Origin: a virus
Taxonomy: Duplodnaviria; Heunggongvirae; Uroviricota; Caudoviricetes
IMG/VR virus record: IMGVR_UViG_2879770953_000006
Length of the DNA stretch: 18,423 nt
Direction: 5' to 3' (one strand)
Shown: piece after piece, positions 1-17,282 of the stretch
How positions within the stretch are numbered: the stretch's first letter is position 1
Layout: each line of letters starts with the position of its first letter
The notes under the pieces: model-generated
The model's database searches: none
What the model was told of the DNA's origin: nothing
The model's input: the letters and a program-made list of their open reading frames with translations, nothing else
Made by a program: the position numbers and the translations under genes

Positions 1-302
1 GAGCCGCAGAGGGGAAGTTGCGTCCATTTTGAGGGAAACGGAGCAAAAAACCGCCATTCATACCCTGAATCAATCAGAGCCATCCAGTTTAATCGTCGGT
101 TCCGTTCATATGGAGCAAAAGTGGTGTTGAAGAAACATCCGTTTTGTGGTGTTTTTTTAATCTTTTTGGGGTTTTAATTCCTATCGATGAACTGGTGGCG
201 AACTGTGCAGGGTTGGCGTAACCGGGTACGGAAACCGGCGAGCCTTTCGGCTCCCCCACACAGCCCGCCATAAATCGCGAATGTGACTGTGCAAACGATA
301 TG

Positions 303-323
303 AAAAAAGACGCGGGCGCGTCT
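303..323 (-). terminator. Rho-independent terminator (tR'-like) downstream of segment-A Q
   Basis: On the minus strand a GC-rich hairpin (AGACGCG / CGCGTCT, 308-323) is followed by a T6 run (rc of A6 at 303-308). Lies about 90 nt downstream of the Q stop. Confidence 0.55.
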
Positions 324-385
324 CATATCGCTCCGTAAACATCCGGGACGCCAATCCCGACGCCAGATTTTGCTGGCGCGTGAGG

Positions 386-415
386 AATATAGCCCCGGAT
401 AACAAATTGAGTCAA
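386..415 (-). promoter_or_regulatory. Putative late promoter (PR'-like) overlapping the Q stop codon
   Basis: Minus strand reads TTGACT (rc of 410-415), 18-nt spacer, TATATT (rc of 386-391). Position immediately after Q mirrors lambda PR'; the short distance to the terminator at 303-323 suggests a small 6S-like RNA. Confidence 0.4.
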
Positions 416-966
416 CAAACGGTTTTTAGATCCCCGGAAGAGAATGCATCACGCATCGGTAGATAGAGCATATATTCAGCAAGATTTAGCCATACATCTA
501 CCCGACTGCAGCACGTCCGGAAACACCACTCAGGGTGTGCGTCATTCAGCAATTCAGCCATTTTACGCTTAGTCATCCCCCGCCCTTCATACCGTTGCCG
601 GAGGACACTAATCAATCCAGGATGCTCTGCCAGCACCTCACTTATGACTCTATCAATACATAACGCCTCTGCATCAGTACAATGCGCCAGCCAGGTCTTT
701 TGCTTGCCATTGATCATCTCTCGCAAAAACGCTTCCAGCTCAGGTTTCTCTATTCCCGCTTTTTTCATCCTGCGCAGGGCTTCATTGACGGCTGTTTTCG
801 TCAATTTTTTGGATGCCAGCAACTGGTTAAACATATTTCCCGTCTTACCGCCGCCAATATACGACCAGCGCCCCCACATGCGCAGTTTTCCCTGAATCCA
901 GACACTTTCCAGCGTGGTGAGACGAAGGTGTTCCCCGCTTTTGCCTGTATTTGTTGGGTAAATCAT
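412..966 (-). CDS. Putative antitermination protein Q, 82/QuuD-type (184 aa)
   Basis: ORF-track ORF 412..1086; preferred start is the ATG at 966, which overlaps the upstream gene stop (ATGA) and has SD AAGGAAGG 7 nt upstream. WGRW...GGGK motif resembles QuuD-type Q proteins by recollection. Last gene of the nin block, followed by promoter and terminator. Confidence 0.55.
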   Translation of the reverse strand: MIYPTNTGKSGEHLRLTTLESVWIQGKLRMWGRWSYIGGGKTGNMFNQLLASKKLTKTAVNEALRRMKKAGIEKPELEAFLREMINGKQKTWLAHCTDAEALCIDRVISEVLAEHPGLISVLRQRYEGRGMTKRKMAELLNDAHPEWCFRTCCSRVDVWLNLAEYMLYLPMRDAFSSGDLKTVC

Positions 967-1253
967 AAATAACCTTCCTTTCTCCAGATTTCTTGTGTGC
1001 GAAAAACACCTTCTGCATGCATCAGGCGTAATTCTTCTTTGGTGTAATCGCTGGTTTTTACCCGCCCGTCGATTAAATCGTGGCATGAGCTACAGGCAAT
1101 CGCTGCCTGCATATCGTGTGGTTTTGTCGCTGTTCCGCACGTCCCCGCCAGCCTGTAATGCGCCAGCACAGAAGTTTCGGGATTGTGATTGCAGTAGCCA
1201 GGAATTCTGACGGTGCACATCTGCCCCCGCGCCGCTTTACGTAAATCCACCAT
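963..1253 (-). CDS. YbcO-like nin-region protein (DUF1364-type putative nuclease), 96 aa
   Basis: Translation MVDLRKAARGQMCTVRIPGYCNHNPETSVLAHYRLAGTCGTATKPHD...SSCHDLIDGR closely matches my recollection of E. coli DLP12 YbcO. TAATG stop/start overlap with the upstream gene. Confidence 0.75.
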   Translation of the reverse strand: MVDLRKAARGQMCTVRIPGYCNHNPETSVLAHYRLAGTCGTATKPHDMQAAIACSSCHDLIDGRVKTSDYTKEELRLMHAEGVFRTQEIWRKEGYL

Positions 1254-1852
1254 TACGCAAACTCCAGTAACTGCGCGGCCACATTTTCGACTTCCTCCGG
1301 AGAGGAAAATTTACGGAACAGGATCCAGTTCCACAGCACATTCAGTACAGATTTATAAACCTGCTGAAACTCGGTTTCGTCCATGTTCGCAAATGCGATA
1401 GATTTTGCCCTGCGCCCACGACTACCATCAGGATAAATATGCTCGGTGTAAAATCCGGCCTGAATGGTTACCCACTCGCGGAAAGCGTCAAACGACTTTA
1501 GCAATGCCGTATCCCGGGTTCTGCATGTCGCAACTGTATTAAGGTATTGCTCTGCGGCATCACTCAGGGCTGGAGTGTGTTCCCGACCTACTGATTCGCA
1601 CAGGTAATCAACGAAGCCTGATACCAGTTTTCGTTCGCGAGGCGTGATCGCCCCACCGACCGGAGTCCAGTAATCAAATCCCAGTTGCAGGAGTTTGAAA
1701 AAACGCTTGTGGAATGCGTAGTTACGCACACGCTTAAAGTCTGCGTGTATCCACTCACCTATTTTGATTTGATGCAAAAAATCGCAACTCTCCGGCGTCG
1801 CCGGGAGAAGTAATCCGGAAGAGGTTTGTTTGACCAGTTGTATATGCGCCAT
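1253..1852 (-). CDS. Conserved lambdoid nin-region protein (DUF1367-like by recollection), 199 aa
   Basis: ATG at 1850-1852 with SD GGAGAA upstream; translationally coupled to the YbcO-like gene; synteny with nin-region genes upstream of Q. Confidence 0.65.
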   Translation of the reverse strand: MAHIQLVKQTSSGLLLPATPESCDFLHQIKIGEWIHADFKRVRNYAFHKRFFKLLQLGFDYWTPVGGAITPRERKLVSGFVDYLCESVGREHTPALSDAAEQYLNTVATCRTRDTALLKSFDAFREWVTIQAGFYTEHIYPDGSRGRRAKSIAFANMDETEFQQVYKSVLNVLWNWILFRKFSSPEEVENVAAQLLEFA

Positions 1853-1985
1853 CGTAGTTCTCCGCTGGCGCAGTAGAATGGGTGTTCAGCCCGTTATGTA
1901 GTATACCAGAATTAATGCCAATACTAACAGGGTAATGCTGCCAACTTACTGATTTAGTGTATGATGGTGATTTTAAGGTGCTTGC

Positions 1986-2261
1986 GTGGCTTCCATTTCC
2001 ATCAGATGTCCTTCCTGCTCCGCTACTGAAGGCGTGGTGCGTAACGGCAAAAGCACTGCCGGACATCAGCGCTATCTCTGCTCTCATTGCCGTAAAACAT
2101 GGCAACTACAGTTCACTTACACCGCCTCTCAGCCCGGTACGCACCAGAAAATCATTGATATGGCCATGAATGGCGTCGGATGTCGCGCCAGCGCACGCAT
2201 TATGGGCGTTGGCCTCAACACGGTTTTACGTCACTTAAAAAACTCAGGCCGCAGTCGGTAA
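1986..2261 (+). CDS. insA: IS1 InsA
   Basis: Translation [66 protein letters not shown]... is near-identical to IS1 InsA. Confidence 0.95.
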
Positions 2262-2683
2262 CCTCGCGCATACAACCGGGCAGTGATGTGATTGTCTGCG
2301 CTGAAATGGACGAACATTGGGGCTACGTCGGTGCTAAATCACGTCAGCGCTGGCTGTTTTACGCGTATGACAGGATACGGAGGACGGTTGTGACGCACGT
2401 CTTCGGTGAACGCACTCTGGCCACACTGGAGCGTCTTCTGAGCCTGCTGTCGGCCTTTGAGGTCGTGGTATGGATGACGGATGGCTGGCCGCTGTATGAA
2501 TCACGCCTGAAGGGAAAGCTGCACGTTATCAGCAAGCGTTACACTCAGCGCATTGAGCGACATAATCTGAATCTGAGACAACATCTGGCAAGGCTGGGAC
2601 GGAAGTCACTGTCGTTCTCAAAATCGGTGGAGCTGCATGACAAGGTCATCGGGCATTATCTGAACATAAAACACTATCAGTAA
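2180..2683 (+). CDS. insB: IS1 InsB reading frame (expressed as InsAB' by -1 frameshift)
   Basis: Translation ...[50 protein letters not shown]... matches IS1 InsB. Coordinates are the ORF-track frame. Confidence 0.9.
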
Positions 2684-2700
2684 GTTGGAGTCATTACCTA

Positions 2701-2952
2701 CTAACAGGATGCTCTGACTCGCAATTCATCCAGCAGTTTATCATTTCCCATAATGTCACTTACCCTCATCGGTAAAAAAATTGCCTTTCGACCATTACGA
2801 TACATTATTGATTTTGGGGTTTCAGGGAAGTAATCCATTTCGACTATAACTGACAGGTCATCACGACGTATGACTGCGTATTTGCTACTAAATAGTTTCT
2901 TTATTTTTTCCACGATGCCTCCAGGTTTATAAGTACAAACGGTTATATCCAC
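2701..2952 (-). CDS. Hypothetical small protein (83 aa), weak start
   Basis: ORF between the hok locus and the nin genes. First codon is GTG with no obvious SD. The stop TAG lies inside the IS1 target-site duplication, so IS1 inserted just 3' of this ORF. Confidence 0.35.
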   Translation of the reverse strand: MDITVCTYKPGGIVEKIKKLFSSKYAVIRRDDLSVIVEMDYFPETPKSIMYRNGRKAIFLPMRVSDIMGNDKLLDELRVRASC

Positions 2953-3099
2953 ATAGAGACAAAAATATTAATCTGAAAAATATTTATTTCACGCCGTATA
3001 TTTGATTGTTTAATGTGCAAGTACAATGACTTTTATTTTTTGTTGTGTATATAATCAAATATATGGTTATTTTTCACCCTGCGTATTCAGCACGCAACA

Positions 3100-3122
3100 A
3101 AAAACCCGCCGAAGCGGGTTTA
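3100..3122 (-). terminator. Rho-independent terminator at 3' end of hok transcript (copy 1)
   Basis: Minus strand: CCCGC-TTCG-GCGGG hairpin followed by T-run (rc of AAAAAACCCGCCGAAGCGGGTTT). Confidence 0.7.
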
Positions 3123-3188
3123 GTGCGGGTGCGTTGAGGATGCCTGACACATGAGAGGTGGCGAGGGATTTCTCCCCCGCCTGGTCTC

Positions 3189-3344
3189 TTACTCCTCAGG
3201 TTCGTAAGCTGTGAAGACAGCGACCTCCGTCTGGCCGGTTCGGATTCGTACCTCGCAGAGGTCTTTCCTCGTTACCAGTGCCGTCACTATGACGGTTAAA
3301 CAGATGACGATCAGGGCGATTAACATCGCCTTTTGCTGCTTCAT
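3189..3344 (-). CDS. hok: Hok-family type I toxin (51 aa), copy 1
   Basis: Translation MKQQKAMLIALIVICLTVIVTALVTRKDLCEVRIRTGQTEVAVFTAYEPEE matches HokD/RelF. ATG at 3342-3344 with SD AAGGAG. CDS is 100% identical in nucleotides to the copy at 16525-16680. Confidence 0.9.
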   Translation of the reverse strand: MKQQKAMLIALIVICLTVIVTALVTRKDLCEVRIRTGQTEVAVFTAYEPEE

Positions 3345-3401
3345 AGCCTGCTTCTCCTTGCCTTTCGGCACGTAAGAGGCTAACCTACATTTGTGAGACA
3401 T
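3189..3401 (-). CDS. mok: Mok-like in-frame upstream extension of hok (70 aa ORF)
   Basis: An ATG at 3399-3401 opens the same frame 19 codons upstream of hok (MSHKCRLASYVPKGKEKQA-MKQQ...), as in chromosomal mok/hok pairs. Absent from the second hok copy. Confidence 0.45.
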   Translation of the reverse strand: MSHKCRLASYVPKGKEKQAMKQQKAMLIALIVICLTVIVTALVTRKDLCEVRIRTGQTEVAVFTAYEPEE

Positions 3402-3682
3402 AGATTGGGCCTCAGATTAATGTTAAGCGTCTTGCAGGACGCGTAATGTTAACTGGGGCTTTTCTCTGTCTGCCTTACAGTGGCATGCCCGAGGCAGACA
3501 GCCTCAAGCACCCGCAGCAATCTTACCGATACCGATAAGAAAACGCTATTTTTTATTGCCAGCACCTTCTATCCAGGCTAATTTATCTGCGTCAGAACGG
3601 CGCAATGCGCTCGCCTGAGATACGTTTACTTGCCATGGTAACAACAGGTAACGGCAATTGCTGTTTCTGTTTTGTTTCCTTC

Positions 3683-3713
3683 AAAAACCCCGGACCATCA
3701 ATCCGGGGTTTTT
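3683..3713. terminator. Bidirectional intrinsic terminator
   Basis: AAAAA-CCCCGGA-CCATCAA-TCCGGGG-TTTTT: 7-bp GC-rich stem flanked by an A-run and a T-run, immediately after the 27-aa ORF. Confidence 0.7.
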
Positions 3714-3718
3714 GTTTG

Positions 3719-3802
3719 TTAACCCCAACGGCAAATCGAATACACCACCAGCGCCACCGCCATCGCAATTCCTACCGTGGTGAATGCCTCAGGCCAGGTC
3801 AT
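3719..3802 (-). CDS. Small hydrophobic peptide (27 aa, MTWPEAFTTVGIAMAVALVVYSICRWG)
   Basis: Not in the ORF track because it is under 60 aa. ATG overlaps the stop of the upstream gene (ATGA at 3799-3802), SD GGAGGTGA upstream, single predicted TM helix, terminator directly downstream. Confidence 0.4.
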   Translation of the reverse strand: MTWPEAFTTVGIAMAVALVVYSICRWG

Positions 3803-4164
3803 TGATTCACCTCCTGCGGTGGTTCCGGTAGCGGCATCCAGTGAGTTGAGCTCTCTACTTCAACGCCGTCTTTGTCCACAAAAGCCATCTTATTCCCGCC
3901 ACGAGTGGGGCAAAAAACCTTATCCCAGGAACCGGGGAATACATTCCCGAGATCATCGAGAAGAATCACATCGCAATATTCAGCAGGAACTGCATCACTA
4001 CAGCTTATCCAGCCAGCCAGAGTTACCGGAGAGTTGCCAGCCTTACGCATGGCCATTTCCACGATTTCAACCATATCTCCTGGTGGAATTTTACAAAGTT
4101 GCCCAATACATTTCTGCTGCCTGGCATATTCGAGAATGTGCTCCAGTTTGGTTCGATTAATCAT
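3799..4164 (-). CDS. Hypothetical phage protein (121 aa), possibly DUF551-type
   Basis: TAATG stop/start overlap with the upstream gene. C-terminal HWMPLPEPP motif recalls DUF551 phage proteins; this is recollection only. Confidence 0.55.
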   Translation of the reverse strand: MINRTKLEHILEYARQQKCIGQLCKIPPGDMVEIVEMAMRKAGNSPVTLAGWISCSDAVPAEYCDVILLDDLGNVFPGSWDKVFCPTRGGNKMAFVDKDGVEVESSTHWMPLPEPPQEVNQ

Positions 4165-4829
4165 TATTTATCTCCCTTAAGCATGGCAGCGCGGCAGGCG
4201 TTCCAGCCATCAACATAATCAAACGTATTACTATCGTTTGGCCCGATTTCATCCGGCACTATCGGCTCTGGTTGGATAGTGACGTTGGCAAAGGCAGCAC
4301 GCAAACCGGTTTTAATTTCTTCGATTTCACCAGAGCCAAGCGATGAATCTGACAGTGCGTGATGGAATGCGTAAGCCATGTCGTCGTTTACTGCAACCGG
4401 CACTGCCGGCGCTGCGTAAAGCGGTGTTATATCTGCCCGAAAATCACATGCTTTATGCAGTCGTACCCAACGCTCAACTTCCGCTTTGTCAAAATATATA
4501 GCAGTGAACGTATTAGATTCCTGGTCAACTTGAGTAAACGTCACCTTCCACGCTACAGCTACGGCTTTCCATCCATCAGGTTGTCGCATTCGCGGGGCAG
4601 CATAAAGCTCATGCATTCCATCAGGCAGCGAGTGACCCACATACTCACCGAACCCGTCAATACACATGCCCCCATCTTCAACAATGCATTCCGCTACAGG
4701 CTCTGCTTCCAGTGATGCCAGAGCGATAAGCGCCAGTTCACGAATTTCACCGCCGTCTATATCGTCAATATCATCGCGGCCAGAAATGTTAGCCAGCCAT
4801 TGCAGTCGCTCTTTGGTAATAGTGGCCAT
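4164..4829 (-). CDS. Hypothetical acidic phage protein (221 aa) with repeated LYAAP motif
   Basis: ATG at 4827-4829 with SD AAGGGG. Overlaps the 3' end of the HNH gene by 73 nt in another frame. No recognisable catalytic motif. Confidence 0.55.
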   Translation of the reverse strand: MATITKERLQWLANISGRDDIDDIDGGEIRELALIALASLEAEPVAECIVEDGGMCIDGFGEYVGHSLPDGMHELYAAPRMRQPDGWKAVAVAWKVTFTQVDQESNTFTAIYFDKAEVERWVRLHKACDFRADITPLYAAPAVPVAVNDDMAYAFHHALSDSSLGSGEIEEIKTGLRAAFANVTIQPEPIVPDEIGPNDSNTFDYVDGWNACRAAMLKGDK

Positions 4830-5191
4830 GCCGTAGCCCCTTCTTGATATTTTTCAAACCAGAACACAACCGGGTCAGATTTCATTTCAACCAATCCCAT
4901 ACGAACCAGCGCTTTGCCTTTCCCGGACGCAAGGAATTCACGACGACCATCACTGATAATTCGTCGATAATCTTCTAGGCTACTGCAATGCTTGTGCAGA
5001 TTGCATGGGTGGCATTCTGGTACCATGTTGGATATATCGTCACGTTCCTGGTGAAGCATATTTCCATCAAAACGAATGACCGGTTTTACATGGTCTGCAT
5101 GCCACTTTTCGCCAAGTTCGCAGCCGCAATAAGCGCAGCGACCACCGAACTTCATGCGCAGTTCTGCACGTTGTTTTTTCGTCAGTGCCAT
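4757..5191 (-). CDS. HNH endonuclease (144 aa)
   Basis: ORF-track ORF 4757..5281 begins with TTG; the preferred ATG at 5189-5191 has SD AAGGAAAG. Motifs CAYCGCEL...WHADHVKPV...CHPCNLHK are typical of HNH nucleases. Confidence 0.75.
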   Translation of the reverse strand: MALTKKQRAELRMKFGGRCAYCGCELGEKWHADHVKPVIRFDGNMLHQERDDISNMVPECHPCNLHKHCSSLEDYRRIISDGRREFLASGKGKALVRMGLVEMKSDPVVFWFEKYQEGATAWPLLPKSDCNGWLTFLAAMILTI

Positions 5192-5192
5192 A

Positions 5193-5411
5193 TCAGCTTT
5201 CCTTATACGGATTAATTTTATTGTGCAGTGTGTTGAATGACGCCCATACCACGTCGTTATACAATTCAATAACTGGCTCAATTATTTTTCCGATTATCCA
5301 GACAAAAATTAGCGGGGATATCGGTGTCATCAACACGATAAACAGAATGAGAAACAGGAATTCTGTTGTTCTACTCTTTCGCGGATATTTTTTTCTAAAT
5401 AATGTAACCAT
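5193..5411 (-). CDS. Small membrane protein (72 aa), AT-rich
   Basis: Basic N-terminus (KKYPRKSR) followed by a roughly 28-residue hydrophobic stretch. Its last codons form the SD of the downstream HNH gene (stop TGA, 1-nt spacer, ATG). Base composition is markedly more AT-rich than neighbours. Confidence 0.5.
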   Translation of the reverse strand: MVTLFRKKYPRKSRTTEFLFLILFIVLMTPISPLIFVWIIGKIIEPVIELYNDVVWASFNTLHNKINPYKES

Positions 5412-5503
5412 TCATTACCGCCCTTTCGGGCGGTCTCCTGATGATTTGAGGGTGCAGAAATCCCTCCGGTTAAGGATTAAATTTTTAACAGTGCTAAATT
5501 TAA

Positions 5504-5860
5504 TTATTCAGTTCTGGATTTTGTCGCCCTGCGTATCCGCGCTTTCGCGTTACGCTCAATCTGTATCAGCTTTTCTATATTTCTCCGCCTTTCCTGTTCC
5601 TCCTGGCGCAATAGCCTTACATCATCTGCCAGTCTGGTTTCTCTTTTTGCCACAGAGAGCATCCAGTCAAACGGCTCCACAACCGCACCGCAGATTTTAC
5701 AGCGGACCTGACGCTCTTTTTCGTCAACCCGGACAGAGGCGTGATGGCAATATGGTCTTTCCGATGGTTCATAAAGAAAATTAACCTGATTACGTGGGTC
5801 ATCCTCTTTTACCGGAAATAAAACGATATTGCTTAACTCATCTTCTGGTTTTATTTCCAT
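5504..5860 (-). CDS. Hypothetical Zn-ribbon protein with basic coiled-coil C-terminus (118 aa)
   Basis: Strong SD AAGGAGAGGAG upstream of the ATG at 5858-5860. CHH...CKIC motif, then a Q/E/R-rich C-terminal segment. Confidence 0.6.
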   Translation of the reverse strand: MEIKPEDELSNIVLFPVKEDDPRNQVNFLYEPSERPYCHHASVRVDEKERQVRCKICGAVVEPFDWMLSVAKRETRLADDVRLLRQEEQERRRNIEKLIQIERNAKARIRRATKSRTE

Positions 5861-5917
5861 GCTCCTCTCCTTTGATGCGAATACCAGCGGTAATTGAAGC
5901 CTGATAGCTAATTTTAC

Positions 5918-6340
5918 TCACAGTACCGCCTCCTGAAATTTCCCCTGATAAAACGCCAGCACGCGCTGCATAGCTTCGCTCTTCCGGCACTCGCGACAGA
6001 TTATATTCAGGCGCCTGTCGTAGCGGCGTATTTCTCCGTCTGGTAATGACCAGATAAGGTCAGGATCAACCACAACCGGTTTCTTCACCTTTACCCTCGA
6101 TAGCTTTTTGCGGGCGTTTTGCCAGTCTTTATGAGCCTGTTCAGAGGGAAATACCCCGTAGCCAGAATTATATACATCACCACTTGCGACCAGTTCCATG
6201 CATAAGCGACCGACAGACGCACGACTGATACCTGTTTCATCTGACAACTGCCGAATCGTGACCCGACCGTCCTGATGCACGAGTTCCACAATTCGCGTCT
6301 TCAGTTCTTCCCGCTGTTCGGGAGTAAAAGGTTTCGCCAT
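5918..6340 (-). CDS. Putative winged-helix DNA-binding protein (140 aa)
   Basis: SD AGGAGG 7 nt upstream of the ATG. N-terminal HTH-like segment (VTIRQLSDETGISRASVGRLCMELVASGDV) and C-terminal CxxC. Confidence 0.6.
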   Translation of the reverse strand: MAKPFTPEQREELKTRIVELVHQDGRVTIRQLSDETGISRASVGRLCMELVASGDVYNSGYGVFPSEQAHKDWQNARKKLSRVKVKKPVVVDPDLIWSLPDGEIRRYDRRLNIICRECRKSEAMQRVLAFYQGKFQEAVL

Positions 6341-6354
6341 AAATCCTCCTGAAA

Positions 6355-7101
6355 CTACTTAACAACCCTCGAATGGCTAACATTCGGACGCCAGCTCTCC
6401 CAGTTAAAATTCACCCAGCGCCCGCCGTTCATGACCATGCGATCCATCACCCGCTCGCCGAGAAGTGTATTCATCGCTGCATGGTTAATATTTGTCAGCA
6501 TCCCCACACCGCGTAACGATGCCGTCCGGCGATCAACAATCTGGTTCAGTACCACCTGCTCGTTTTTCGTATCCCGCTGCATGCCAATTTCATCCAGGAC
6601 CAGCAGGTCAACACCACAAAGCTCCTGTAAAAATTTTTCACCGGATTTGCCGTTGTCGTAGCTCTCATGCAACACGCTCATGACATCGGACACGGTGACG
6701 ATAATCACGCTACGCCCCTTCGCCATCAGCCGGTTGCCAATCGCGGCTGCAAGATGATTTTTTCCGGTGCCGGGCTTACCGCTGAACACAAAATTCGTAC
6801 AGCCTGTCATCAGTTCGTCAGCTATGGATTTCGCCTGACTCAGTGCATGTCGCTGACCGTCGTTCTGCGCCCGGTAATTCGCAAACGAACACTTCCGGTG
6901 CAACGGCTGGATGCCGGAGCGGTTCAGGATTTTTTCCACCCGCAACTGACGATTCAGGCGGTTGATCTCCTCGCAACGTTTCTGGCCTTCAGCAAGTTGC
7001 CACTCGCGCCACTCCGCAACCGTTCTGAATGGGGCGGTTACATGTGGTGGGGTCAGTCTGCGGATACGCTCCAGAACGCCTCCTGTCGCAATATTTTTCA
7101 T
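6355..7101 (-). CDS. DnaC-like replication protein / helicase loader (IstB-like AAA+ ATPase, YdaV-like), 248 aa
   Basis: Walker A FSGKPGTGKNHLAAAIG and Walker B LLVLDEIG; immediately downstream of the initiator-like gene. Confidence 0.85.
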   Translation of the reverse strand: MKNIATGGVLERIRRLTPPHVTAPFRTVAEWREWQLAEGQKRCEEINRLNRQLRVEKILNRSGIQPLHRKCSFANYRAQNDGQRHALSQAKSIADELMTGCTNFVFSGKPGTGKNHLAAAIGNRLMAKGRSVIIVTVSDVMSVLHESYDNGKSGEKFLQELCGVDLLVLDEIGMQRDTKNEQVVLNQIVDRRTASLRGVGMLTNINHAAMNTLLGERVMDRMVMNGGRWVNFNWESWRPNVSHSRVVK

Positions 7102-7107
7102 GGTCTG

Positions 7108-7848
7108 TTACCCCCTGAAGCCTGGCGGGATCGCACTGTCCGGCAACGAGACGGTGTTAACCTGTCGGAGCAACGTCTCAGGCCGAACACCTTTCGGCGC
7201 GAACAGACCCTGGTATTCATTGGCGATGCTGTGTCGAATCACCTGCTCAGGTGTAAAACCCTGCTGACGGAATTTTTCCAGTTCCCGTATCGCCCCGTTA
7301 GCGCCCAGCTCCGTTCGAATCGGTTTTCGCAATGCCTGCCTGAACTGGACCCACTCATGCCAGAGTGTATCTGGCAACCAGTCGGGCAGATCAACTGACA
7401 ACGGGTCAAATTTTTTCTGGCGAACAGCCCCACCGATAACCAGAATTCCCTGCTCGGTGTGCCTTGCGATATCACTGCGCCGCAAGACACATATCCCGGT
7501 TTCAACAGCACCGATTTTGAGCAGTGATTTCTGTCGCGGAGAATTTCGGTCAAGCTCGATCCCACACCGGACACCGTTCCTGTCAGTCACGACGATATCA
7601 ATCCGCCCTCCGCAACCGTCACCACGCTCTGGCACCGGATACTCACGACAGACATCCAGGCCAGCAGCCTGCAACGCAACCACCGCAGAATTACAAAATT
7701 CCGCTGCAGTACCGCCAGATAATCTCCCCTCAAGCACTCCAGCCACAAAATCCCGAAACTCCCTTCCGGAAGGGAAGGGTTTGGGATGGGTTAGATCTGT
7801 TTTTAGATCTTTATCTGTATCTTTATTAGTTGCCTTTGTGTTGGCATC
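7108..7848 (-). pseudogene. Replication initiator (lambda O-like / YdaU-like), C-terminal portion, separated from its 5' part by IS2
   Basis: Open frame from the IS2 junction to the stop at 7108. It is in frame with the N-terminal piece at 9185-9592 once IS2 and one TSD copy are removed, giving a 382-codon gene. Confidence 0.7.
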
Positions 7849-7939
7849 TAGACTGGCCCCCTGAATCTCCAGACAACCAGTATCACTTATTTAAGTGATA
7901 GTCTTAATACTAGTTTTTAGACTAGTCATTGGAGAACAG

Positions 7940-8305
7940 ATGATTGATGTCTTAGGGCCGGAGAAACGCAGACGGCGTACCACACAGGAAAAGATCGCAA
8001 TTGTTCAGCAGAGCTTTGAACCGGGGATGACGGTCTCCCTCGTTGCCCGGCAACATGGTGTAGCAGCCAGCCAGTTATTTCTCTGGCGTAAGCAATACCA
8101 GGAAGGAAGTCTTACTGCTGTGGCCGCCGGAGAACAGGTTGTTCCTGCCTCTGAACTTGCTGCCGCCATGAAGCAGATTAAAGAACTCCAGCGCCTGCTC
8201 GGCAAGAAAACGATGGAAAATGAACTCCTCAAAGAAGCCGTTGAATATGGACGGGCAAAAAAGTGGATAGCGCACGCGCCCTTATTGCCCGGGGATGGGG
8301 AGTAA
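7940..8305 (+). CDS. insC: IS2 InsC (OrfA), 121 aa
   Basis: Translation [56 protein letters not shown]... matches IS2 InsC; ATG at 7940 with SD GGAGAA. Confidence 0.95.
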
Positions 8306-9168
8306 GCTTAGTCAGCCGTTGTCTCCGGGTGTCGCGTGCGCAGTTGCACGTCATTCTCAGACGAACCGATGACTGGATGGATGGCCGCCGCAGTCGTCAC
8401 ACTGATGATACGGATGTGCTTCTCCGTATACACCATGTTATCGGAGAGCTGCCCACGTATGGTTATCGTCGGGTATGGGCGCTGCTTCGCAGACAGGCAG
8501 AACTTGATGGTATGCCTGCGATCAATGCCAAACGTGTTTACCGGATCATGCGCCAGAATGCGCTGTTGCTTGAGCGAAAACCTGCTGTACCGCCATCGAA
8601 ACGGGCACATACAGGCAGAGTGGCCGTGAAAGAAAGCAATCAGCGATGGTGCTCTGACGGGTTCGAGTTCTGCTGTGATAACGGAGAGAGACTGCGTGTC
8701 ACGTTCGCGCTGGACTGCTGTGATCGTGAGGCACTGCACTGGGCGGTGACTACCGGCGGCTTCAACAGTGAAACAGTACAGGACGTCATGCTGGGAGCGG
8801 TGGAACGCCGCTTCGGCAACGATCTTCCGTCGTCTCCAGTGGAGTGGCTGACGGATAATGGTTCATGCTACCGGGCTAATGAAACACGCCAGTTCGCCCG
8901 GATGTTGGGACTTGAACCGAAGAACACGGCGGTGCGGAGTCCGGAGAGTAACGGAATAGCAGAGAGCTTCGTGAAAACGATAAAGCGTGACTACATCAGT
9001 ATCATGCCCAAACCAGACGGGTTAACGGCAGCAAAGAACCTTGCAGAGGCGTTCGAGCATTATAACGAATGGCATCCGCATAGTGCGCTGGGTTATCGCT
9101 CGCCACGGGAATATCTGCGGCAGCGGGCTTGTAATGGGTTAAGTGATAACAGATGTCTGGAAATATAG
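8263..9168 (+). CDS. insD: IS2 InsD (OrfB transposase), 301 aa
   Basis: Translation ...[50 protein letters not shown]... shows the DDE-type IS3-family transposase signature. Confidence 0.95.
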
Positions 9169-9184
9169 GGGCAAATCCAGCATC

Positions 9185-9592
9185 ATGTTCGAACACCACT
9201 CCAACATCTGTTTGAACACCTGTTAAATTTCTCTCTTGTTTTGTTTGAACATCTGCTTCCTTTCTGCTTCTTCTGGCCTGAACAGATGCTTTTCCTGCGG
9301 CTGATTTTTTGGTTAATTTTTCTCTGACAGATGCCAGATCTTCCTCAATCCGAAGATGCATCCATTCGTCGCCGTTATCACAAAAAAACTCCCGCAAGGA
9401 TGGTTCAACATCAACCCATCGCTCGTTAGTCAGACGGGCAATTTTTGCCAACCTGTTTTTGGGTATTGGCTTTCCTGTTTGCCAGTAATTGAACATCAGC
9501 AACAAATACGCGCCGTGCTCCTCTGCTGACAAATGCATGGTGTCAGCCAGATAATCAGCTATGTACAGTTGCATGTATGGTAATGCGGCCAT
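9185..9592 (-). pseudogene. Replication initiator (lambda O-like / YdaU-like, DUF1376-type), N-terminal 136 codons, truncated by IS2
   Basis: Translation MAALPYMQLYIADYLADTMHLSAEEHGAYLLLMFNYWQTGKPIPKNRLAKIARL... resembles YdaU-type proteins by recollection. The listed 196-aa ORF 9002..9592 is chimeric, with its tail encoded by the IS2 end. Confidence 0.7.
9186..9290. repeat. Putative origin iterons inside the initiator gene
   Basis: Direct repeats of TTTGAACA(C/T)CTG-like motifs at about 9187, 9211, 9244 and 9279 (33-bp spacing between the two best copies). An AT-rich repetitive stretch lies at 7789-7830 on the other side of IS2. Confidence 0.4.
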
Positions 9593-9695
9593 AATTGCCC
9601 CGTATGATGCTACCCGGTTGCTTAGAATAAGTGAGGTAGCCTGAGTTTAACGGACGCTCCTTCCTGAAATAGAATGGCATCAGAAGGAGCTAATA

Positions 9696-9998
9696 ATGAG
9701 CAGAAAAACCCAACGTTACTCTAAAGAGTTCAAAGCCGAAGCTGTCAGAACGGTTCTTGAAAATCAACTTTCGATCAGTGAAGGCGCTTCCCGATTATCT
9801 CTTCCTGAAGGCACTTTAGGACAATGGGTTACCGCCGCCAGAAAAGGGCTCGGTACTCCTGGTTCCCGCACGGTGGCTGAACTGGAATCTGAAATTCTGC
9901 AACTGCGTAAGGCGTTAAATGAAGCTCGCCTTGAGCGAGATATATTAAAAAAAGCAACAGCGTATTTTGCACAGGAGTCGCTGAAAAATACGCGTTAA
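9696..9998 (+). CDS. IS600-like OrfA (100 aa)
   Basis: Translation MSRKTQRYSKEFKAEAVRTVLENQLSISEGASRLSLPEGTLGQWV...; HTH plus leucine-zipper arrangement typical of IS3-family OrfA. Confidence 0.9.
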   Translation: MSRKTQRYSKEFKAEAVRTVLENQLSISEGASRLSLPEGTLGQWVTAARKGLGTPGSRTVAELESEILQLRKALNEARLERDILKKATAYFAQESLKNTR

Positions 9999-10033
9999 TC
10001 GAACAATGGCGACAACAATTTCCCATTGAAGCG

Positions 10034-10852
10034 ATGTGTCAGGTATTTGGTGTATCCAGGAGCGGTTATTACAACTGGGTACAGCATGAACCCTCAGACA
10101 GAAAACAAAGTGATGAGCGGCTAAAACTGGAGATTAAGGTGGCACATATCCGCACTCGCGAAACATATGGAACCCGGCGGCTCCAGACGGAGCTGGCAGA
10201 GAATGGCATCATCGTTGGTCGTGACCGACTGGCACGTCTTCGTAAGGAGCTGAGGCTACGCTGTAAGCAGAAACGCAAGTTCAGAGCGACTACGAACCCG
10301 AACCACAATCTGCCAGTTGCGCCAAATCTGCTGAACCAGACGTTCGCTCCTACAGCACCAAATCAGGTCTGGGTGGCGGACCTGACGTATGTTGCCACAC
10401 AGGAGGGATGGTTGTACCTCGCTGGCATCAAAGATGTTTATACGTGCGAAATTGTCGGCTACGCCATGGGAGAGCGCATGACAAAAGAGCTGACAGGTAA
10501 AGCCCTGTTTATGGCGCTCAGGAGCCAGCGCCCACCTGCCGGGCTAATCCACCACTCTGATCGAGGTTCACAGTACTGCGCATACGATTACCGGGTCATA
10601 CAGGAGCAGTTTGGTCTGAAAACATCAATGTCGCGTAAAGGTAACTGTTACGACAACGCTCCGATGGAAAGCTTCTGGGGAACGCTGAAAAATGAGAGCC
10701 TGAGCCACTATCGTTTTAATAACCGGGATGAAGCCATCTCAGTAATACGGGAATACATTGAGATTTTCTACAATCGTCAGCGTCGTCACTCTCGTCTGGG
10801 GAATATCTCCCCGGCAGCCTTCAGGGAAAAATATCATCAGATGGCTGCTTAA
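10034..10852 (+). CDS. IS600-like OrfB transposase frame (272 aa; normally an OrfAB frameshift fusion)
   Basis: DDE transposase motifs (...WVADLTYV...HHSDRGSQY...NAPMESFWGTLK...). Confidence 0.9.
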   Translation: MCQVFGVSRSGYYNWVQHEPSDRKQSDERLKLEIKVAHIRTRETYGTRRLQTELAENGIIVGRDRLARLRKELRLRCKQKRKFRATTNPNHNLPVAPNLLNQTFAPTAPNQVWVADLTYVATQEGWLYLAGIKDVYTCEIVGYAMGERMTKELTGKALFMALRSQRPPAGLIHHSDRGSQYCAYDYRVIQEQFGLKTSMSRKGNCYDNAPMESFWGTLKNESLSHYRFNNRDEAISVIREYIEIFYNRQRRHSRLGNISPAAFREKYHQMAA

Positions 10853-10895
10853 AAAAAGAACAAATGGTAGTGTCCGCTATTGCCAGTACACCTCA

Positions 10896-11056
10896 GTCAG
10901 ATATGTCAGCAGCCCAAACAGCAGACTCCCCAGCACGCCTATTGCCGCCCACTGAGACGGGGAAAACCTGTCCAGCAACTGCAGGAACCAGTAGCCCGTT
11001 CCCACCGCTGACGTGGTGTATGACACACCTGTTGTGATTTTTTCCATCTGGTCCAT
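10896..11056 (-). pseudogene. S21-type pinholin, 3'-truncated by IS600
   Basis: Translation [54 protein letters not shown] closely resembles phage 21 holin S21 over 53 native codons. The reading frame then runs 5 codons into the IS600 end (EVYWQ, stop). Dual-start motif M-D-Q-M present; SD GGGAGA. Confidence 0.75.
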
Positions 11057-11363
11057 ACCCCGTCTCCCGTTATCCGGAAGCTGACAACAATAAAAAAGCC
11101 ACCAGTTAACTACTGATGGCTCTGATAACTCATGCAAGCGTCTCAGACGACCCACTGACACTACCGGTGAGTTTAACGATACCTTCCATTTGACTGGCTC
11201 ACTTTTTATGATGATGCCGGTGCATTTATCTCCAGCACCAGACTTTCTATCTCAACGCCATACGTTGCATTTTTGGTAATATCCGTCAGCGTCAGTGCAT
11301 TTAGTCCCACTGCCAGACTGTCTTTTATGGCCTGGAATGCCGGGCCAGTACGATGACGTAGTA

Positions 11364-11552
11364 TCACTCCGGCTCAGTTGCACCACTGACCACCACATCA
11401 CCTTCTGCTGCAATCGCCTGCATCAGGGTATAAGGGGTTATGGCCACCGGACTACCAAACGGCTGCCAGCCCTCTTTCAGTTTATGTGTCAGCTTTTCCG
11501 CAAGATCTGACGGCGGCGCCGCCCTGACAACATCATAGTGTTTAAATGCCAT
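11364..11552 (-). CDS. Small conserved phage protein (DUF1737-like by recollection), 62 aa
   Basis: ORF-track ORF 11364..11567; preferred ATG at 11550-11552 with SD GGTGGA. Lies upstream of the holin, as in Stx-phage lysis regions. Confidence 0.5.
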   Translation of the reverse strand: MAFKHYDVVRAAPPSDLAEKLTHKLKEGWQPFGSPVAITPYTLMQAIAAEGDVVVSGATEPE

Positions 11553-11811
11553 GGTTCTTTCCACCATCTGAAAAATAATTCTTTAAAATACCTGACATGT
11601 AATACAGAAAAAACACAAAACCATACCTTAAATAAAAACCTGATTATCAAGCAGATATGCATGGATAAACTACAAGACGAGATATAAACCACCCTGCATT
11701 TAAATAAACAATAAACAACATCAGAAAAATAATTCTGCTCTATGGTTTAATTCAAAAATATCATTTATACTTTTCAGAACATCACCAGCAAGGCATAAAC
11801 AAGGAAACTAA

Positions 11812-12147
11812 ATGAAGTGGATTGTGATTGATACAGTTATCCAGCCATCATGCGGAATATCTTTTTCAGTCATATGGAGTAAAATAAAATTAATAATCTG
11901 GTATCAATCGGATGCTTTCTTACCTCCTGAAAGTATATTTACACTGACTCACACAGGCATCATGCTCAATAACAAAGTGCTACCTGTAACCATTTACAAC
12001 GTAGTACCATTCAATAAAACATTCTGGAATTTAATCAAAAACAGCCAGGAATGCCCTACAAATACAGATAACGTATTGAATGAATGCTTTAATAACCGTT
12101 GCACTCTGCAAATATGTCCTTATGGACTAAAACAACAAAGTCCATAA
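11812..12147 (+). CDS. Hypothetical protein (111 aa), AT-rich cargo ORF
   Basis: ATG with SD AGGAAA 6 nt upstream. The only plus-strand ORF with good signals inside the prophage; AT-rich codon usage; C-terminal Cys cluster. A hairpin at 12184-12199 (CCCCTC-CGGA-GAGGGG) lies about 37 nt downstream. Confidence 0.45.
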
Positions 12148-12594
12148 GGAGTTTACTCACATCTGACAAAATCAATATAAACAGCCCCTCCGGAGAGGGG
12201 CTGGAGAGTGGCGCTATGTGCCATTGCATGGTGCCGGGTGCCTCCCGGTGAATTCAGTACCAGCACCTGAATCCGCGATTATCCCATATACCTACTCGCT
12301 GATTGCCCCTCCGCACAGGGGGATTCACCATGCCAGTTTCTTTTAACAAACTCCCCGCAAACCAGACAACAGTCAACCGCCTGAATTGTGAAGTATTTAA
12401 AAATTTCTCCCGCTAACTGATACCCGGCTAACAGTCTGGCGTTTTCTTTTTCAGCAACGGGAAAGCAACAACCACCACACCCGCCACCAGCACACCGTCA
12501 GCCGGCACTGACATTATCCGGCTGCTGCAATGCCATTCACAAAAACAGTAAGCAATCACTTTTTACCGTAACAGGTGATAATCCAGATATGTAT

Positions 12595-12948
12595 CTACCC
12601 CAGATGAGTAATCCGAAGTTCATCCATACCACAGGTCCTGGCTATTCTGTTGTACTCCTGAACAAGAGCAAATAATTCTGAATTAGCAACCATGAACTCA
12701 TCGCAAACCCTCTGTATAGCATCACTATTCAGAATAATAACGTCTCTTCCCGAAAGACGATCAGGAGTACAGAACAAAACTGTCAAACGGCTGAAGGCCT
12801 TTGCTCGTGCTGCATTGACTATATCAATACGCTGCCTAAGGATGAAACACCCCGACGCCTCATCAATATTCACTCTACCCACACCATATGAATGATAAAT
12901 ACTTAATGCTGAAAAAACCATTAGACCGTATAACAAATACTCAATCAA
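12595..12948 (-). CDS. Hypothetical protein (117 aa from TTG; 108 aa from ATG at 12921), first ORF downstream of the tRNA genes
   Basis: Six-frame ORF with no strong SD. Sits at the position stxAB occupies in Stx phages. No motif recognised. Confidence 0.4.
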   Translation of the reverse strand: MIEYLLYGLMVFSALSIYHSYGVGRVNIDEASGCFILRQRIDIVNAARAKAFSRLTVLFCTPDRLSGRDVIILNSDAIQRVCDEFMVANSELFALVQEYNRIARTCGMDELRITHLG

Positions 12949-13058
12949 TACTTAACAGAACTTTTATTTTTGACAAATATATAATATTTTCAACAATATC
13001 CTGAGCCAGGTATATTTCAGTATAAGGCTCTGCCGGAAGGAATCTGGAAGAATGAATA

Positions 13059-13135
13059 TGGCGCGCTGTACTGGATTCGAACCAGTGACCGATTGCTTAG
13101 AAGGCAATTGCTCTGTCCGGCTGAGCTAACAACGC
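13059..13135 (-). tRNA. tRNA-Arg (anticodon UCU), phage-encoded
   Basis: rc reads GCGTTGTTAGCTCAGCCGGACAGAGCAATTGCCTTCTAAGCAATCGGTCACTGGTTCGAATCCAGTACAGCGCGCCA. Cloverleaf is consistent: 7-bp acceptor stem with one G-U pair, T-loop GGTTCGAATCC, anticodon loop CTTCTAA, 3' CCA. Confidence 0.85.
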
Positions 13136-13236
13136 TGAATACCGATAATGGACCGCCATCGGGGACCCGCCCCCCGCACCAACAACCCTGTTATCGTGTC
13201 GTCTGCTCTTCCTGATAAGCTAATGGCGGTTTGTGA

Positions 13237-13312
13237 TGGTGGCCCTTGCTGGATTTGAACCAGCGACCTGGCGATTATGAGTCGCTCGCTCTCACCACTG
13301 AGCTAAAGGGCC
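13237..13312 (-). tRNA. tRNA-Ile2 (anticodon CAU, ileX-like; formally could be a Met tRNA)
   Basis: rc reads GGCCCTTTAGCTCAGTGGTGAGAGCGAGCGACTCATAATCGCCAGGTCGCTGGTTCAAATCCAGCAAGGGCCACCA, which closely resembles E. coli ileX. Confidence 0.8.
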
Positions 13313-13351
13313 GGGAGCAGAATAATAACGGTCCGTAATTAATTTCGCAAT

Positions 13352-13373
13352 AAAAAACCCGCTCAGCGGCGGG
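13352..13373 (-). terminator. tR'-like intrinsic terminator downstream of PR'
   Basis: Minus strand: CCCGC-CGCTGA-GCGGG hairpin followed by T6 (rc of AAAAAACCCGCTCAGCGGCGGG). Confidence 0.65.
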
Positions 13374-13407
13374 TTGTAGAAACTCTTCTAACGTCAGGCA
13401 TAAAACG

Positions 13408-13450
13408 CCCATCATTATGACGAATTTACCACAGATTCCGGAAAAATCAA
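13408..13450 (-). promoter_or_regulatory. Lambda PR'-like late promoter with qut/pause element
   Basis: Minus strand TTGATT-16 nt-TAAATT-cgtcaTAATGATGGG, compared with lambda PR' TTGACT-17 nt-TAAATT-tgactcAACGATGGG (from memory). Sits 5 nt after the Q stop. Confidence 0.7.
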
Positions 13451-13455
13451 CCTTG

Positions 13456-14277
13456 TTACCTAGTTACCTTTTTTAACTGCCGCTCAGCCCATGCTTCTTC
13501 AATATCAAACCGGGTCACCAGCGCATCATAAAATTTCTTAACTGTTTTTTCCCATGACGCGCGTGTTATCTGGTTTGTCACCTCGCATATAGCATTAAAT
13601 GCCTCCGTTGATGGTAGTCTTTCATAGCCACGACCACCACAACGCTGGCAGTCTCTGATAACAGGCATACCACGTTTTACCGACTCTTCACGATGAATGG
13701 CGACACCACGCCCACGGCAATCCTTACAGGCGGTGGAAACCTCACCCTTTCCGCCACACTCCGGACAGGCAACTTTTACCACCTCCCTGACTTTTTTCCA
13801 TTCTTCCCAGTAAGACGGATACACACCTTTCGTGCACTTTGCCCATACCGGCGGCTTACCATCCGGATACTGGATCTTGTTTGTAAAAACTATGCTTTCA
13901 ATAAATTTTTCCCCATAGCAACAAGGGCACTGCTTTTTACTCGCTGCGCTGCGGGCATAATCCTCAAAAGCGTACGAAGCCATAATGCGCATCACTACCG
14001 GTTTTATTTCTGCCGGAAGTTTTCTCAACGCCGCCACACGATCGCACCGACTGAGTGCATAATCTGCCAGTAATTCTGTTGCCCGCGCCCTGTCATTCAT
14101 ACTGATGCCCATTTTCCCCAGGAACGCAGAAAAACCCATCTCAGCCCGATTCTGTGTCATGCCCTGCGCGGCCATCACATCAGTGATACTCAGCGCATCT
14201 TTTGACGTTGAGGCCGATGCATCGGTCAGGCCAGGGGATTTTGGGGAGTAGTATTTCGGTAAATCTTCCAGTTTCAT
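13456..14277 (-). CDS. Q: Antitermination protein Q, lambda type (273 aa), with extra Cys-rich insertion
   Basis: Collinear with lambda Q: KYYSPKSP / KFHSPKSP, SITDVMAAQGM / SGTDVMAAMGM, ASYAFEDYARSAA / ATFAYADYCRSAA, C-terminal ...WEKTVKKFYDALV...VTR. Four CxxC motifs, three of them CxxCxGxG. Confidence 0.85.
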   Translation of the reverse strand: MKLEDLPKYYSPKSPGLTDASASTSKDALSITDVMAAQGMTQNRAEMGFSAFLGKMGISMNDRARATELLADYALSRCDRVAALRKLPAEIKPVVMRIMASYAFEDYARSAASKKQCPCCYGEKFIESIVFTNKIQYPDGKPPVWAKCTKGVYPSYWEEWKKVREVVKVACPECGGKGEVSTACKDCRGRGVAIHREESVKRGMPVIRDCQRCGGRGYERLPSTEAFNAICEVTNQITRASWEKTVKKFYDALVTRFDIEEAWAERQLKKVTR

Positions 14278-14291
14278 TTTTTGACCTGCTC

Positions 14292-14648
14292 TTAATGCAT
14301 TATGGGGTAAATCTTCACCCCCAGACGTCCACCAGATACTGGCTGACCACGAACGATATTGATTTCATCAAACTGCTCATCGTCCATTAACACTCCCGCA
14401 TGCGTCAGCGCATCCAGCGGTGCTTTCAGGATATTGTCCAGGTCGCGACGACGCTTATCCGGTGGCTCTGCAATCACCTTTATCGCCAGCCTTCCGGACA
14501 GGCTTAATTTCAGCCGCTGCTGGCGAACAATAAGCGCCACAGCCCGGCGATAACGCTTTCCCTCCTCCGAGATAAAATATGTGCTGCCACGGCGTCGCCA
14601 GTAAGTGTTCACCGTCGGCGGGTAAGGTAAAACCAAATCTATGAGCAT
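14292..14648 (-). CDS. rusA: RusA-family Holliday-junction resolvase (118 aa)
   Basis: Motif PDKRRRDLDN, overall similarity to RusA, SD AGAGGTGA, position just upstream of Q. Confidence 0.85.
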   Translation of the reverse strand: MLIDLVLPYPPTVNTYWRRRGSTYFISEEGKRYRRAVALIVRQQRLKLSLSGRLAIKVIAEPPDKRRRDLDNILKAPLDALTHAGVLMDDEQFDEINIVRGQPVSGGRLGVKIYPIMH

Positions 14649-14660
14649 CAGTCACCTCTT

Positions 14661-15710: not shown

Positions 15711-15711
15711 G

Positions 15712-15990
15712 TTACCTCCAGATCCGTTGCTGGAATGTGCGGGACGGACGCGGTGGCTGTTCGGAGTAAGGGAGCCTGACGGAGATTATCCAGTGACGGT
15801 AGTCGAGGCTAAGGGCTTTTTTAACCTCGCATCCGCGCCTGCGGTAACACTGAATGAGCCATTCGGCCTGTTCTTCAGTGCATGAGGGATGCTGGTACCA
15901 GTCTGACTTAAATGCGTGAGAATACCGCTCGTGCGTGTGGGCAAGAACGGTCGAATTATCATGATTGTAATATTTTGCGTTGCGTGCCAT
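15712..15990 (-). CDS. Hypothetical protein (92 aa)
   Basis: ATG with SD GGAG; its stop is 1 nt from the downstream start and its 3' end supplies that gene's SD. Confidence 0.5.
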   Translation of the reverse strand: MARNAKYYNHDNSTVLAHTHERYSHAFKSDWYQHPSCTEEQAEWLIQCYRRRGCEVKKALSLDYRHWIISVRLPYSEQPPRPSRTFQQRIWR

Positions 15991-16056
15991 CGGTTTTCTC
16001 CGGTGGCACGGTGTTACTCAGCGGGAGTTCAGCCCCGCGCAAGATTGTAGATGAGT

Positions 16057-16307
16057 TTATTCTTCTGAAAAAGCAGAAAAGCCAGCTTTTATTCCGGTCT
16101 CTTTCAATGCCTGTAATGAAGTGACAAACTCACCGTCGCGCAAGATAAATCCGTCCGTCACTCGGGCATCCACAAAATTAATTAACGCAGCCCCATTTTT
16201 TGCAAACACACAATGCGGTAATGACTAACAATATTTCCATTTTCAACGCACACAGCATAGAGGCCATCTTCACAAAAAATTTTACGCAGTTCTTCGATGT
16301 TCATCAT
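16057..16307 (-). pseudogene. 83-codon small ORF (rem-like by size and synteny) interrupted by a -1 frame break in an A6 tract
   Basis: ATGATG start at 16307 with SD GGAAGGA. Reading MMNIEELRKIFCEDGLYAVCVENGNIVSHYRIVCLQK stops after 41 codons. The -1 frame continues NGAALINFVDARVTDGFILRDGEFVTSLQALKETGIKAGFSAFSEE to the stop at 16057. One extra A in the tract (T6 at 16196-16201 on plus) restores a single 83-codon ORF. Confidence 0.5.
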
Positions 16308-17278: not shown

Positions 17279-17282
17279 GTCT

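Follow-up and report, generated by a model that had tools for sequence, protein, structure and literature searches.

Toxins of the Hok/Gef family are small and hydrophobic, with about 50 amino acids (aa), a conserved cysteine, and a C-terminal periplasmic tail. In the hok/sok (parB) locus of plasmid R1, as we read its sequence, mok and hok occupy different frames, and in the mokC/hokC (gef) and mokB/hokB pairs of Escherichia coli K-12 the two genes are in frame and share their stop coordinates. Truncated hokD entered the textbooks in the 1980s and 1990s, and loci of the hokW type have been annotated since the 933W genome record of 1999. The hokW-sokW locus of Sp5 is a demonstrated type I toxin-antitoxin (TA) system, in which sokW is expressed from its own promoter, mutations of the sokW promoter unmask toxicity, and repression depends partly on RNase III and Hfq (Takada et al. 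2021, PMC8621323); Hok of R1 and Hok of the hokW type are about 44% identical (PMC8621323). Here, we analyzed an 18,423-nucleotide (nt) stretch of Caudoviricetes DNA (IMG/VR record IMGVR_UViG_2879770953_000006, hereafter the window) carrying two hok loci 13 kb apart, and established how they are built, how their RNAs are predicted to fold, to what they are homologous, and how they vary across the population. Copy 1, on the minus strand at about 3096-3525, is to all appearances a complete and quite ordinary type I TA module (hok/mok/sok) of the hokW-sokW subfamily. The best joint explanation of the data, to which we assign a probability of roughly 0.75, is that copy 1 is such an apparently complete module, that copy 2 is a truncated hok linked to relBE, and that the identity of their coding sequences (CDS) reflects family-wide conservation.

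Copy 1 shares 92.8% nucleotide identity over the locus with hokW/mokW/sokW of 933W (AF125520), whose record annotates all three genes, and 92-97% with the loci of many other lambdoid phages. It has the architecture of the 933W and Sp5 hokW-sokW loci and, like them, lies between early/nin-like genes and the Q antiterminator module. The Sok stem-loop is nearly identical to that of 933W, tac and fbi (the complementary 5' and 3' elements of hok mRNA) are the same, and mok is likewise an in-frame gene of 70 codons. The two loci differ at 8 nt of the hok CDS, the 933W protein ending in ...VFVDYESEK and that of copy 1 in ...VFTAYEPEE (as in HokD), and also in the 5' tail of Sok together with codons 2-4 of mok (GUGAGACAUAGAUUG versus GUUCAGCAUGGAUUG). 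Furthermore, 933W lacks the GC-rich terminator stem present in copy 1, and the sequences upstream of the -10 element are unrelated. With R1, copy 1 shares the order of tac, 5' hairpin, ucb, mok Shine-Dalgarno (SD) sequence, Sok promoter inside the mok leader, hok SD, and fbi, as well as the distance of fbi from the stop codon (about 45-50 nt) and the aligned position of the Sok promoter. In contrast to R1, copy 1 has mok in frame with hok, a predicted 71-nt Sok whose extended stem tip adds 16 nt to the Rfam consensus, and a location on a prophage rather than a plasmid. The in-frame arrangement is also that of K-12 hokC and hokB, which are core-chromosomal and represent different alleles, whereas copy 1 is prophage-borne; hokC-type loci (L017-L024) show about 86% CDS identity to copy 1, with a leader alignable over only about 59 nt. 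Finally, K-12 hokD (relF) encodes the identical 51-aa peptide, to which copy 1 adds tac, ucb, mok, and sok.

The Rfam model RF01794 ('sok') matched positions 3339-3513 (minus strand) at full length (1-157) with 118.1 bits, for a gathering score of 59 and with 4 non-canonical pairs flagged. Since the match lies on the hok-sense strand and runs as far as the hok start (GCUAUGAAG), what the model captures is the leader of hok mRNA, not the Sok strand. Strand calls taken from this 'sok antitoxin' model should be inverted, the real Sok being encoded on the opposite strand inside the matched interval. Folding of the whole predicted transcript (3096-3513, minus strand) gave a structure of -178.4 kcal/mol (z = -8.0) closed by tac and fbi in both the minimum free energy (MFE) and centroid predictions. 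This is the pairing that the earlier note on this DNA, made from the letters alone, had proposed to look for, and it involves the first 12 nt of the RNA. In the predicted full-length fold, ucb is paired with the mok SD (GAGG at 3410-3413, 8 nt upstream of the ATG at 3401) and the hok SD is also base-paired, which is the inactive conformation described for R1 hok mRNA (PMC9841398).

These elements are conserved in related loci. The 12-bp tac-fbi helix is paired in 66/66 aligned related sequences, and loci of Escherichia, Kluyvera, Photorhabdus, Pantoea, and Erwinia show the same tac-fbi complementarity 45-50 nt beyond the stop codon, with a covarying change from GGUGC/GCACC to GGCGC/GCGCC. Helix 3, formed by ucb and the mok SD, is 99.8% paired in the alignment. 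The 9-bp inverted repeat described previously (CTGTCTGCC at 3466-3474 and GGCAGACAG at 3493-3501) was recovered as the stem of the conserved 5' hairpin, where a compensatory change from A-U to G-C at alignment columns 15/47 separates 57 sequences from 6, the window being among the 6. Covariation in this close-family alignment is weak, most pairs being invariant and the structure being derived from the window sequence itself, and it thus supports conservation rather than independent proof. The 70-codon mok-like frame was equally borne out as an ATG open reading frame (ORF) in frame with hok; an in-frame 70-aa mok was present in 57 of the 66 distinct related loci and is the norm in the hokW-sokW subfamily. 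The toxin itself matched Pfam PF01848 (HOK_GEF) with 82.9 bits for a cut-off of 22.

On the opposite strand, the weak antisense promoter candidate pointed out earlier (TTGCCT-17-TAACCT) occupies the exact position of the Sok promoter of R1 (TTGCGC-17-TATCCT) and of 933W sokW, and its -35, spacer, and -10 are identical in the window and 933W. In Sp5, mutation of the sokW -10 abolished antitoxin activity (PMC8621323). The Sok RNA is predicted to fold at -29.2 kcal/mol (z = -5.3), leaving a 5' tail of 14 nt unpaired ahead of a long stem-loop and a terminal UUUU, which is the architecture of the annotated SokW. The same stem reaches only -17.8 kcal/mol on the hok strand because several of its pairs are G-U. 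The direct repeats TAATGTTAA (3418-3426 and 3444-3452), which had been noticed around the palindrome GCGTC-N6-GACGC, make up the arms of the stem-loop that terminates Sok, with the palindrome at its tip, and are therefore known structural elements. Coordinates of all features are collected in Table 1.

Table 1. Features of the two hok loci in the window.
Feature	Positions	Strand	Basis and remarks
hok promoter -10, TAAGAT (putative)	3520-3525	-	6 nt upstream of the 5' GGG; aligns with TAGAAT (933W) and TATGAT (R1)
hok mRNA 5' end and tac, GGGUGCUUGAGG	3502-3513	-	Start of the RF01794 match; pairing with fbi in the MFE fold
Conserved 5' hairpin of hok mRNA	3466-3501	-	Rfam consensus structure; the 9-bp inverted repeat forms the stem
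ucb / anti-SD box, GCCCCAG	3453-3459	-	Pairs with CUGAGGC (3408-3414), the mok SD region, in the full-length fold
mok, 70 codons	3189-3401	-	ORF list; annotated as mokW in 933W
hok toxin CDS, 51 aa	3189-3344	-	Identical to K-12 HokD; SD AAGGAG at 3354-3359
fbi, CCUCAACGCACCC	3127-3139	-	Complementary to tac
Intrinsic terminator of hok mRNA	3096-3121	-	Stem at 3102-3121 followed by a U-run; terminator scan and fold
Sok promoter	3358-3386	+	Predicted; -35 TTGCCT (3358-3363), 17-nt spacer, -10 TAACCT (3381-3386)
Sok antisense RNA, 71 nt (predicted)	3393-3463	+	Ends transferred from the 933W sokW feature (L001 1559-1629)
Copy 2 hokD	16432-16694	-	CDS at 16525-16680, own SD and 3' untranslated region; fbi at 16463-16475, terminator at about 16438-16457
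relE (16752-17039) and relB (17039-17278)	16752-17278	-	NCBIfam TIGR02385 (RelE/StbE) and NF008412 (RelB)

Copy 2 stands behind relBE, as had been reported, with relE and relB upstream in exactly the order of the K-12 Qin prophage. It is the same locus as K-12 hokD, the CDS and the relE-hok junction being identical. Alignment to copy 1 and K-12 hokD showed that tac, ucb, the mok start, and sok are absent from copy 2, and RF01794 gave no match there even at E<=1. Membership in the relBE-hokD (relBEF) operon class was accordingly found for copy 2 only, copy 1 not being a member. The fold of the 3' untranslated region (UTR) of copy 2 is weaker than that of copy 1 (-34.6 versus -45.3 kcal/mol), and two private substitutions in a hairpin of this UTR (GGCGAGTGAG versus GGCGGGGGAG), which weaken it, represent a variant seen in 1/86 sampled loci. 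Copy 2 is missing all of the sequence complementary to Sok and is therefore out of reach of Sok from copy 1. It is a hok cut 14 nt upstream of its ATG that retains SD, CDS, fbi, and terminator, and it would be transcribed from the relBE promoter and escape Sok control. The literature describes hokD as inactivated by rearrangement (PMC12214031). Taken together, the RF01794 match, the tac-fbi fold, and the Sok promoter alignment support the contrast drawn in the earlier note between an autonomous hok/mok/sok module in copy 1 and an operon-embedded hok in copy 2. The window shows, next to each other, an intact locus of the hokD type and its truncated derivative linked to relBE, which fixes the truncation point inside the hok SD region.

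A separate observation concerns the Tyr47 codon (UAC, 3204-3206 and 16540-16542, minus strand), which both copies keep in an invariant context, CUUACGAA, that forms a tRNA-Arg-like TadA motif. Published work reports that hokD mRNA undergoes A-to-I editing at a low level, by which this Tyr is recoded to Cys (PMC12214031).

The earlier note had read the identical CDS next to a diverged UTR as a sign of gene conversion or strong selection on the peptide. The comparison on which it relied was accurate: the CDSs at 3189-3344 and 16525-16680 (both minus strand) agree at 156/156 nt, the homology reaches back exactly 14 nt from the ATG (AGGAGAAGCAGGCT) and no further, and the 3' regions (3096-3188 and 16432-16524) differ by 6 substitutions and a T-run of 6 versus 5. 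With no difference in 170 nt of CDS and upstream sequence and 6 in 93 nt of 3' region (Fisher p = 0.0018), the contrast is real under a uniform-rate model, and such a pattern fits a recent conversion between copy 1 and copy 2 over a CDS-limited tract. Also in its favor, hok segments clearly exchange between loci, the alignment of the 66 loci being mosaic, and relBE is linked elsewhere to a second hok allele. In Kluyvera sp. CHPC 1.2972 (L030:480-970), relE and the relE-hok spacer are ~97% identical to window positions 16420-16900 up to ...TTGACAG, past which a different hok allele follows that is 75% identical to the one in the window. With a sok-linked hok of Citrobacter youngae (L051), this allele shares 94.8% identity, the homology beginning at the same point in the hok SD. 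Attachment of relBE to two hok alleles at one junction suggests modular exchange or homology-limited conversion.

For the two copies of the window, however, we regard conversion as very improbable. We sampled 91 hok loci from IMG/VR and GTDB genomes, 84 of which were sok-linked, and estimated diversity from 66 distinct full-length sequences. The CDS haplotype of the window was found exactly in 44 of the 84 sok-linked loci and is thus the modal allele, which makes a conversion event unnecessary. The sok-linked loci nevertheless had 46 different leaders, and 51 different 3' UTR windows occurred among all 91 loci. Nucleotide diversity in the CDS was 0.0096 (0.015 at third positions), compared with 0.065 for the leader and 0.087 for the 3' UTR, placing the CDS 7-9 times below either flank. 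At a ratio of 0.0096 to 0.087, about one CDS difference is expected per six UTR differences, and observing zero is unremarkable. Moreover, the six UTR differences are a mixture of 2 common shared polymorphisms, 2 rare changes private to copy 1, and 2 rare changes private to copy 2. K-12 hokD carries the same CDS, while a contig scan of the K-12-like genome CP178308.1 found no sok-linked hokD-type copy. One property of the sample weighs against our reading: the viral loci were chosen for 100% Hok identity, which biases CDS diversity downward, with third positions less affected. The identical CDS is a strongly conserved, family-wide block between variable, recombining UTRs, and the two copies simply carry its modal form. 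Of the two causes first proposed, strong constraint holds, whereas conversion is not needed and, since the CDS is conserved even at third positions and the haplotype is modal, the constraint does not bear on the peptide alone.

Transcription, processing, toxicity, and regulation of copy 1 in the source strain are inferred from the R1 and Sp5 paradigms, using the tac/fbi/ucb/dcb scheme of PMC9841398. A weak constitutive promoter would yield hok mRNA in a stable full-length form, about 415 nt long, in which tac is locked to fbi and both SDs are base-paired, so that the RNA would be neither translated nor bound by Sok. Slow 3' trimming would then remove fbi, and the ensuing refolding would expose the mok start region with the Sok target. 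The unstable 71-nt Sok would pair with this region through its single-stranded 5' tail, block translation of mok and the coupled translation of hok, and trigger cleavage by RNase III. When the supply of Sok stops, for example upon loss of the element or, as shown for Sp5, upon prophage induction, the 51-aa membrane toxin would be made.

Several results weigh against an active module. The hok promoter is the weakest and least secure element of copy 1. In a survey of 80 loci, the -10 was TAGAAT in 71, while the TAAGAT of the window occurred in only 3 others; the -35 is poor (TAGCGT), and the -35-like TTTGCG/TTGGCG usual among relatives is replaced in the window by a rare upstream spacer. A consensus promoter scan called neither the hok nor the Sok promoter (7/12 matches for the latter) because both deviate from consensus, and their placement uses instead alignment to R1 and 933W and published mutagenesis. 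Furthermore, the MFE fold of a 3'-trimmed mRNA placed the 5' end in a local hairpin with no clear tac-ucb stem and did not reproduce the refolding. Earlier work, as summarized in bioRxiv 10.1101/2025.08.07.668861, found no post-segregational killing by chromosomal hok loci with intact elements, nor by chromosomal hokA, hokB, and hokC.

The weak hok promoter and the refolding that was not reproduced, together with the inferred nature of transcription, leave some weight for the view that copy 1, like most chromosomal hok loci, is a structurally intact but silent relic, its promoter being too weak or its mRNA never activated, so that only Sok, or nothing, would be expressed. The rarity of the upstream spacer (39/5426 complete E. 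coli genomes) and the state of the host genome, which is IS-ridden (IS, insertion sequence), decaying, and Shigella-like, with a frameshifted rem nearby, point the same way. We nevertheless judge this unlikely, given that every RNA element, both frames, and the Sok promoter are intact and identical or nearly identical to those of the functional hokW-sokW, that hok promoters are weak by design, and that several Shigella and E. coli genomes have kept an identical locus (100% over leader, CDS, and 3' UTR in a Shigella flexneri genome, L012, and an E. coli genome, L007).

A further question is what an apparently complete module in copy 1 would be for. Since, after mitomycin C, the Sp5 hokW-sokW system contributes to lysis and doubles phage release (PMC8621323), copy 1 may serve mainly as a phage-lysis helper or a phage-defence element, and not as a maintenance (addiction) module. 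We consider this somewhat doubtful for the source strain, where the prophage is an IS-broken remnant and a role in phage release is improbable. This alternative concerns the biological role and not the molecular mechanism, and is compatible with the reading of copy 1 as an apparently complete TA module.

The genes around copy 1 follow the order DUF977, DUF4014, DUF551, hok, DUF1367, YbcO, and Q-like antiterminator, which fits a remnant of a lambdoid prophage, specifically its early-right region, in a Shigella-like chromosome. The interval of 3096-3802 first given for the locus does contain the module, but the latter covers only about 3096-3525, the remainder (3526-3802) comprising a distinct ORF of 27 codons and a spacer in which a terminator hairpin lies. 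The hairpin (3682-3714) lies between hok and the upstream DUF551 gene and insulates hok from the upstream genes. It is a strong bidirectional terminator with the better T-run on the plus strand, and the spacer that holds it (3514-3718) is unannotated in the E. coli genomes that carry it and gave only sub-threshold Rfam matches. The 27-codon ORF (3719-3802, minus strand; MTWPEAFTTVGIAMAVALVVYSICRWG) is hydrophobic, and its ATG overlaps the DUF551 stop codon (ATGA). It had no Pfam or NCBIfam match, is conserved but unannotated in 933W (L001:1384-1467, MTWPEAFANVGTVMAVVLVVYSICRWR), and was found upstream of hok in 8/89 sampled loci. The hok 3' UTR of copy 1 (3099-3180, minus strand), with two hairpins and a terminator, gave a sub-threshold match to isrK (30.6 bits for a gathering score of 50; 20.7 bits in copy 2), which is probably architectural similarity only. 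A permissive Rfam scan of 3000-3900 likewise returned only sub-threshold matches from terminator hairpins (isrK-like, and STnc30 and others on 3612-3720), which we attribute to chance or architecture.

Downstream of copy 1, the ORF at 2701-2952 was considered as a Rem homologue that would have extended the hokD-rem synteny, and this argument was dropped for want of any similarity; a position upstream of the Q antiterminator module is still shared by copy 1 and hokD. Downstream of copy 2, rem (16057-16307, minus strand) carries a 1-nt deletion relative to K-12 rem (GTTTGC-AAAAAATGG) that splits it into ORFs of 41 and 50 codons, and is probably a pseudogene.

At a larger scale, the window is 99.99% identical to CP054892.1 (L141) over positions 1-14164. 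The Qin-like segment that holds copy 2 (10897-17561) is bracketed by inverted copies of one IS3-family element (9630-10896, plus strand, and 17562-18423, minus strand), with ORFs of 100 and 272 aa, and the window holds another IS at about 8260-9600. The two prophage remnants lie apart in related Shigella-like genomes, with hundreds of kilobases between the hok copies, so the proximity of the copies in the window reflects an IS-mediated rearrangement. Other RNA genes of the window include a C4 antisense RNA/isrK/c4-a1b1 target region (191-392, minus strand), which is an immunity or antirepressor control region adjoining the Q-like gene on the copy 1 side, STnc100 (12173-12362, minus strand), and tRNA-Arg(tct) and tRNA-Met(cat) (13059-13312, minus strand), which lie downstream of the Qin-like Q gene.

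The type of both loci is already known, copy 1 being of the hokW-sokW type and copy 2 the classical relBE-hokD, and neither contains anything new. For annotation, PGAP names such loci only 'HokD' or 'Hok/Gef family protein' and leaves Sok, mok, and the regulatory RNA elements unannotated. The only part that is possibly new is evolutionary, namely, a near-frozen toxin CDS combined with a hypervariable Sok recognition tail. The Sok 5' tail (3393-3407, plus strand), which is the mok start region on the minus strand, occurred in 12 variants among the 66 distinct loci, in which the toxin CDS is near-identical. Variable columns made up 10/15 of the tail and 7/56 of the Sok stem-loop (p = 7e-5), and S. 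flexneri SFBU1023 harbors three co-resident loci (L010, L012, and L016) with three different Sok tails. We tentatively suggest, as a possibility rather than the expected outcome, that this variability may reflect selection for mutually orthogonal antitoxins, by which each co-resident prophage would keep its own addiction. Such selection could act beside the modular exchange of hok segments exemplified by the Kluyvera relBE junction.

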